NCBI RefSeq assembly: GCF_054482525.1
Contig: NZ_CM137006.1
DNA length: 64,000 nt
Direction: 5' to 3' (one strand)
Positions 19,957 through 20,240 of the stretch are shown piece by piece. How positions within the stretch are numbered: the stretch's first letter is position 1; the number at the start of each line of letters is the position of its first letter. The translations under genes and the position numbers were made by a program. The notes under the pieces were generated by a model. That model saw only the letters and a program-made list of their open reading frames with translations, was not told the origin of the DNA and searched no databases.

Positions 19957-20240
19957 TACTGCTCCTGAACGGTTTACAGGAGTAAGTGTAGACGATGGTA
20001 AATGAATTTTGTGGGGCAGAGTTTTTGCGGGGAAGTATTTTGTTGGTAAAAATATTATCAACTTCATCTGAGCGAGAATTATTCTACTATTTTCCGAGCT
20101 GCATTCATTTTTTGTATTTTTTATTTTTAGAAAATAACAATTCTCAAAGCTTAACTACCTCACTATTAATTGTATTTCAAACCAATAATCGCACTCCATT
20201 TTCTCTTTTTAAAAAATATAAACACTGTTAAAACAAATAT

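Follow-up and report, generated by a model that had tools for sequence, protein, structure and literature searches.

A compact RhsC element and its AT-rich tail upstream of ybgA in Escherichia coli

Why should an Rhs gene and its small downstream partner be joined to ybgA by 284 bp of AT-rich DNA and nothing else? The window, by which we mean the whole stretch of 64,000 nucleotides that was analysed, carries an RhsC element between ybfA/kdp and ybgA/phr, as placed by the annotation of an identical record and the map of open reading frames (ORFs). E. coli SCU-102 (NZ_CP051753.1) matches positions 19400-21300 at 100% identity and the surrounding 8.5 kb at 99.99%. The locus is oriented in reverse of the K-12 map. 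On the minus strand lie phr (18032-19450, from the ORF list and the annotation of the SCU-102 record), ybgA (19447-19956; DUF1722, the first gene of ybgA-phr and the core-genome gene to the right of the Rhs site, from the ORF list and the SCU-102 annotation in RefSeq), a 124-aa ORF 3' of Rhs, the Rhs gene itself (20600-24775) and, as annotated, ybfA, the core gene to the left of the site (25019-25225). Rhs, the small ORF, ybgA and phr all read in the same direction. On the minus strand, ybgA has its start codon at 19954-19956, and the 124-aa ORF has a stop codon that begins at 20241, so the interval 19957-20240 delimited by the earlier note matches this gap exactly. No feature is annotated between the 124-aa ORF and ybgA in the SCU-102 RefSeq record.

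K-12 is organized very differently at the same place. The earlier note placed orphan Rhs fragments, extra immunity genes and an H-repeat remnant at the K-12 junction, and this is correct: the order is rhsC-ybfB-ybfO-ybfC-ybfQ-ybfL-ybfD-ybgA, with 5.7 kb of extra DNA. BLAST of the window against K-12 returned three colinear blocks. The first (window 26359-21098, 96%) extends from kdp through the Rhs core to its end, the second is the 3' kilobase of the same core, which also matches the ybfO orphan, and the third covers ybgA-phr with 57 bp upstream (window 20013-18039, 94%). These 57 bp are all that K-12 and the window have in common upstream of ybgA. Window positions 20014-21097 (1,084 bp) have no K-12 counterpart and stand in place of 5,671 bp of K-12. 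When this K-12 segment, from ybfB to ybfD, was compared by blastn with the whole 64-kb window, its sole match was the main Rhs core, which paired with the core fragment in ybfO. The ybfQ, ybfL and ybfD H-repeat copies matched nowhere in the 64-kb window, and the window held no second Rhs core match of the kind expected from an orphan core fragment with another tip. Both elements occupy the site between ybfA and ybgA, and both combine a GC-rich core, 96% identical between them, with an AT-rich tip and a small downstream ORF in the same layout. Unlike K-12, the window has a different tip and downstream ORF, no orphan core fragment, second immunity gene or H-repeat copy, and an AT-rich tail that is missing from K-12. 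Since K-12 lacks the same compact junction and the spacer holds no orphan fragments, the observation of a compact junction stands.

The limits of the element follow from chromosomes in which the site is empty. In strain 042, ybfA and ybgA are separated by 101 bp without an Rhs element. Alignment with 042 and two cryptic-clade genomes puts the element boundaries at 19994/19995 and at about 24962, giving a whole RhsC element of 4,968 bp (19995-24962). Its left end, with a 187-bp leader, lies at 24776-24962 on the minus strand, and alignment with the empty-site alleles is regained at about 24962-24964, where the ybfA terminator lies. The Rhs core follows (21098-24775, minus strand, 62% GC, 96% identity to K-12 rhsC). 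In the translation, the core ends in the conserved DPxGL boundary (here DPLGL) and continues into a unique tip. This AT-rich C-terminal tip, taken as the toxin domain, spans 20600-21097 on the minus strand and was delimited by the lack of a K-12 counterpart in BLAST, by the census and by the ST38 locus. The 124-aa immunity-like ORF (20241-20615, minus strand) is known from annotation and from remnant copies, and overlaps the Rhs stop by 16 bp. We use the name W for the toxin tip together with this downstream immunity-like ORF. Tip, small ORF and tail form a 3' domain of 34% GC.

The spacer itself is composite. The 38 bp nearest to ybgA (19957-19994, minus strand, 47% GC) are core chromosome, and homology with the empty-site alleles of 042 and the two cryptic-clade genomes stops at 19994. 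These columns are invariant across the nine Escherichia alleles of an alignment comprising the window, K-12, ST38, SM107, E. albertii, E. whittamii, two Escherichia sp. and 042. The same alignment identifies the next 23 bp (19995-20017) as a right end common to occupied RhsC-site alleles. Whatever adjoins it upstream, this right end is present in occupied alleles of E. coli, E. albertii, E. whittamii and the two Escherichia sp., and it is missing from empty-site alleles; BLAST homology to other species stops at 20013-20017. The remaining 223 bp (20018-20240, 26.5% GC) form a non-coding AT-rich tail specific to W. This tail travels with the W immunity gene and is always found at this locus. Taken by itself, it is 98.6-99.6% identical among compact strains that differ by 5% in ybgA. 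In total, the accessory Rhs element accounts for 246 of the 284 bp, and these are replaced or missing in 93% of genomes. The compact strains resemble one another at 98.6-99.7% identity over W cassette and tail as a block, whereas the flanking ybgA is only 94.9-95.1% identical in ST2747 and CFIAFB. The tail thus belongs to the W unit.

The GC content of the spacer is 30.3% over the full 284 bp and 25.4% over 20068-20240, compared to 52% for the window, and the longest A/T run measures 17 bp. Only 0.6% of 284-bp segments in the 64-kb window are equally AT-rich, and the AT-richest single one begins at 20033. Stop codons crowd all three minus-strand frames. The earlier note saw no orphan rhs or H-repeat cluster in the spacer, and permissive tblastn and blastn searches with the proteins and DNA of the K-12 and ST38 Rhs loci found no rhs, immunity or IS remnant in the 284 bp at E < 0.03. 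A degenerate remnant was rejected on these grounds, as nothing credible was matched. No coding, repeat or structure signal was detected in 20018-20240. We regard the spacer as probably a composite junction without function as a unit of its own.

Nothing above threshold was found for the W tip or the 124-aa ORF in Pfam, NCBIfam or PDB sequence searches. The position of the 124-aa ORF directly 3' of the tip makes it the putative cognate immunity gene. Its N-terminus is a signal-peptide-like segment, which suggests that the W toxin may act in the periplasm. On inspection, the Cys/His motifs NNCYSYA and DYHWYR of the tip recall a cysteine peptidase or amidase. In the window, an in-frame TAG at 21257-21259 on the minus strand (…EYDEWGN*LNEEN…) interrupts the Rhs core, which RefSeq notes as an internal stop. 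The Rhs toxin gene is therefore a pseudogene here, and the downstream 124-aa ORF is intact. The site reads CTG (Leu) in ST70, ST2747, AW1.7 and ST38, and the gene is annotated as intact in PCN033, ST70 and ST2747. Three substitutions fall within 8 bp at the TAG site.

How common the compact junction is was determined in 5,426 complete E. coli genomes. The full compact junction occurs in 40 of them (0.7%), the K-12-type junction of the ybfD H-repeat with ybgA in 3,188, and an empty site, with ybfA and ybgA close together and no Rhs, in 1,310 (24%). The remaining genomes include O157-type and SM107-type alleles and an unrelated integrase island. The W tail (20015-20240) was found in 377 genomes, always on the chromosome and nearly always as a single copy. 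Compact alleles sit on several backgrounds (PCN033, ST70, O166:H15, ST2747 and O158:H23) and are usually intact there. Among the best 60 of 193 loci with Rhs core within 1.3 kb of ybgA, all two-piece compact loci are W-type. The compact allele is a rare but ordinary RhsC allele.

Pieces of W were recovered from two classes of more complex arrays. AW1.7-type genomes, about 337 in number, retain the whole spacer and the final 132 bp of the W immunity gene (20241-20372), adjoining an ISAs1/H-repeat end. AW1.7 itself carries rhs, an IS5-disrupted region, ybfC, ybfQ, ISAs1, the 132-bp W ORF remnant, the complete tail and finally ybgA. Colinearity with the window extends from phr to 20372 in both AW1.7 and VTB97022v, and an ISAs1 terminus comes next. 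In VTB97022v, an IS903B has entered the AT-rich tail of an AW1.7-type array (positions 7945-9000 of locus L005), and about 9-10 bp are duplicated, at window 20037-20046. About 243 further genomes (ST38-type) hold an orphan core fragment and the first 275 bp of the W tip (20823-21097), cut by ISAs1; in ST38 this piece is 99.3% identical to the window. In the ST38-type layout, the main rhs bears a different tip and is accompanied by a DUF6714-like ORF; then come the orphan core fragment with its W tip and a ybfD-type ISAs1, which adjoins ybgA as in K-12. The W immunity gene breaks off after exactly 132 bp in 33/33 sampled AW1.7-type matches, and the same start base recurs in 23/23 sampled ST38-type matches. 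A single breakpoint per class in all sampled genomes indicates that each array class goes back to one event. ISAs1 termini are thus the breakpoints that cut W in other strains and adjoin ybgA in K-12, whereas the 64-kb window has no ISAs1 sequence matching the K-12 H-repeat copies. W pieces are always at the distal array end, and none of the 620 genomes holding W DNA has an array with an intact orphan W cassette.

The distal position of these remnants is informative. Under the C-terminal displacement model, the oldest tip of an array is the most distal one (Jackson et al. 2009, PMC2935791). The same study lists the kdpA-phr site as position 5, among the oldest rhs sites, illustrates displacement at position 4, and describes clade I loci as usually without dissociated tips (Jackson et al. 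2009, PMC2935791). Compactness is therefore not unusual for the clade. W remnants at the distal end of arrays indicate that W was once distal there, as the model predicts. The ST38-type W tip resembles the orphan toxin/immunity arrays described for CDI and Rhs systems (Jackson et al. 2009; Poole et al. 2011, PMC3150448) in being a displaced, cut orphan, and the W immunity remnant of AW1.7-type arrays resembles them in its distal location. The window differs from such arrays as an undisplaced state with a single cassette.

The likely explanation is that the window holds a minimal, undisplaced RhsC element whose tail is the spacer, and that displacement and erosion produced the other alleles. 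The element would consist of the leader, the GC-rich core, one AT-rich W tip, one immunity-like gene and the AT-rich tail. The 38 bp of the spacer proximal to ybgA would be core DNA and the other 246 bp the right-hand non-coding tail of the 4,968-bp element. The locus in the window would have remained compact as its W tip was neither displaced by an incoming tip/immunity cassette nor hit by an ISAs1/H-repeat. In other lineages, the main gene would have acquired new tips, so that W was shifted downstream and became an orphan. Copies of ISAs1 would then have cut W, with the 3' part lost in ST38-type arrays and the 5' part lost in AW1.7-type arrays. In K-12-type arrays, W and the tail would have gone entirely, with the H-repeat end now 57 bp from ybgA. 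Boundaries, census and remnants are observations; the order of events is inferred from the C-terminal displacement model (Jackson et al. 2009).

The compact locus could also be a secondary product. Recombination between the core and an orphan core might have removed intervening cassettes and re-attached W to the full-length gene. ST38-type arrays offer the needed substrate, with W behind a core fragment of 96-97% identity, and Koskiniemi and colleagues are said to have selected core-orphan recombination experimentally in Salmonella in 2014. However, all arrays found with W DNA hold a W cut by ISAs1, leaving no intact orphan W to re-attach, and the compact allele shows no scar, IS or extra immunity gene. 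We consider such streamlining unlikely.

A second alternative is recent horizontal replacement, in which an incoming segment with the core 3' end, W tip, immunity gene, tail and ybgA flank replaced an array. Compactness would then be uninformative on ancestry. The high identity of W cassette and tail (98.6-99.7%) next to ybgA and phr sequences that differ by about 5% could be explained in this way, as could the mosaic flanks, with phr 99.9% identical to strain 042 and ybgA 95.1%. A W divergence of at most 1.4% against a flank divergence of 5% is compatible with recent horizontal spread as well as with old residence. The remnants weigh against replacement. In AW1.7-type arrays they differ from the window by about 2-3%, like the surrounding core genes, which favours a long residence of W at the site. 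Searches of plasmid and phage records and of other E. coli loci also found no copy of W or its tail. An episomal source of the cassette was rejected given the lack of plasmid or phage matches. Replacement is, overall, quite unlikely.

Returning to displacement and erosion, the earlier note had called the compact junction less rearranged or ancestral, and only the first half can be retained. Relative to AW1.7- and ST38-type arrays, with their W remnants, the compact allele is likely the unrearranged state. Whether it is ancestral for E. coli was assessed with species-representative genomes carrying YbgA, and the outgroups differ. In E. albertii NBRC 107761 the contig stops 123 bp upstream of ybgA (locus L013, 1-124), and its neighbour is as in E. 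coli SM107. In E. albertii and SM107 (locus L010, 7627-7884), ybgA adjoins the 3' end of a gene resembling yibA (NF007244; the match spans profile positions 202-283 of 285), a remnant of a last cassette other than W. Upstream of ybgA in E. whittamii lies an ISAs1 transposase, and in Escherichia sp. E1V33 a small ORF and an IS200 accompany another Rhs tip. Two cryptic-clade genomes labelled E. coli have an empty site with the same boundaries as 042. W was found in none of these outgroups and their right-end neighbours differ, which fails to polarise compact against array state. With such different neighbours, the compact allele cannot be called ancestral for the species. The two genomes with an empty site, E69 (CP089930.1) and SCPM-O-B-8794, are about 88-96% identical to the window over 20 kb. 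Both are GTDB species representatives labelled E. coli, and an identity this low suggests that they are probably cryptic-clade Escherichia. Contigs of several Escherichia drafts break 0.1-2 kb upstream of ybgA, as expected beside repeated Rhs/IS DNA.

The least probable alternative gives the AT-rich tract a role of its own, as a small gene, the ybgA-phr promoter, a terminator or an H-NS nucleation site insulating ybgA from rhs transcription, and it is very unlikely given that the tract is missing from 93% of genomes, which still have ybgA-phr. Extreme AT content and the lack of a predicted intrinsic terminator between the W ORF and ybgA, so that insulation might be needed, speak in its favour. 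A 78-aa plus-strand ORF (19995-20231) spans the spacer and is annotated as a hypothetical protein (WP_225932692.1) in one RefSeq genome. However, CFIAFB20140388 has a -1/-2 frameshift pair in this frame and PCN033 a nonsense change, both of them tolerated, and the frame matches no family. It was rejected as a small gene and is very probably not one. The RNA fold of the spacer is no better than that of shuffled sequences (z = +0.75), and a structured RNA or terminator was likewise discarded, with no terminator-like site in the spacer. Sigma-70 promoter-like matches in the AT-rich tract number 2, against 3.4 expected in shuffles, and enrichment was rejected; one of them (20061-20034) is on the ybgA strand.

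The earlier note also took the spacer for a likely H-NS-bound tract. H-NS prefers DNA in a range that includes 26.5% GC. The tail, at this value against 52% for the window, resembles acquired AT-rich DNA silenced by H-NS, and binding is plausible from AT content alone. It differs from such DNA in having no high-affinity motif: the motif TCGATAAATT had no match with up to 2 mismatches. An H-NS high-affinity site in the tract was rejected accordingly. For H-NS at rhsC, the literature gave a single candidate paper, in which rhsC figures only as an incidental mutation.

The earlier note also proposed the spacer as the promoter region of ybgA-phr. This probably holds for the part proximal to ybgA, which contains a sigma-S-like extended -10 element, and not for the AT-rich tract, which is accessory and has promoter-like matches at no more than shuffled frequency. 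The element, TCTACACTTA, lies at 19992-19983 on the minus strand, within the invariant core columns. It fits KCTAYRCTTAA, which we take to be the sigma-S extended -10 consensus, at 10/11 positions. The K-12 promoter ybgAp1 is cited from RegulonDB as sigma-38-dependent. Placed by this consensus, TCTACACTTA may be the -10 of the ybgA-phr promoter. As 246 of the 284 bp are replaced or missing in most genomes, a promoter in common with K-12 must lie in the ybgA-proximal 57 bp, and the ybgA promoter is probably in these approximately 60 bp rather than in the AT-rich tract. The ybgA Shine-Dalgarno sequence, CAGGAG, is at 19967-19962 on the minus strand. Together with CTCCTG (19982-19977) it forms a minus-strand stem of 6 bp with a 9-nt loop. 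This hairpin is invariant in nine Escherichia alleles and is predicted in the MFE as well as the centroid fold; in read-through transcripts, ybgA translation could be masked by it.

The locus represents the simplest form of a known site, RhsC, and both tip displacement and ISAs1/H-repeat activity are already established. The compact allele is already present in RefSeq genomes, and the series of W remnants is a tidy illustration rather than a discovery. The import beyond the locus is small: a clean natural series of Rhs tip displacement and IS-mediated erosion at the RhsC site, from the minimal element (40 genomes) to the displaced, cut orphan (about 243), the distal immunity remnant (about 337), complete loss (3,188) and the empty site (1,310). 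DNA directly upstream of ybgA-phr is radically different between strains, so photolyase regulation inferred from K-12 need not transfer to other E. coli. One could go further and propose that the compact W allele was the founder state of the RhsC site, that the 23-bp right end and tail serve as a landing zone for tip cassettes and ISAs1, and that W is a not-yet-described periplasmic toxin with a signal-peptide immunity partner; we hold this combination to be unlikely.

The genes to the right of the site are unusually diverse and mosaic within E. coli. Both ybgA and phr are only 94-95% identical between strains whose W cassettes are more than 99% identical. In the window, phr is 99.9% identical to strain 042, but the adjoining ybgA is only 95.1% identical. 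The pattern indicates a likely recombination breakpoint near 19450-19500 and deep allele classes beside the Rhs site.
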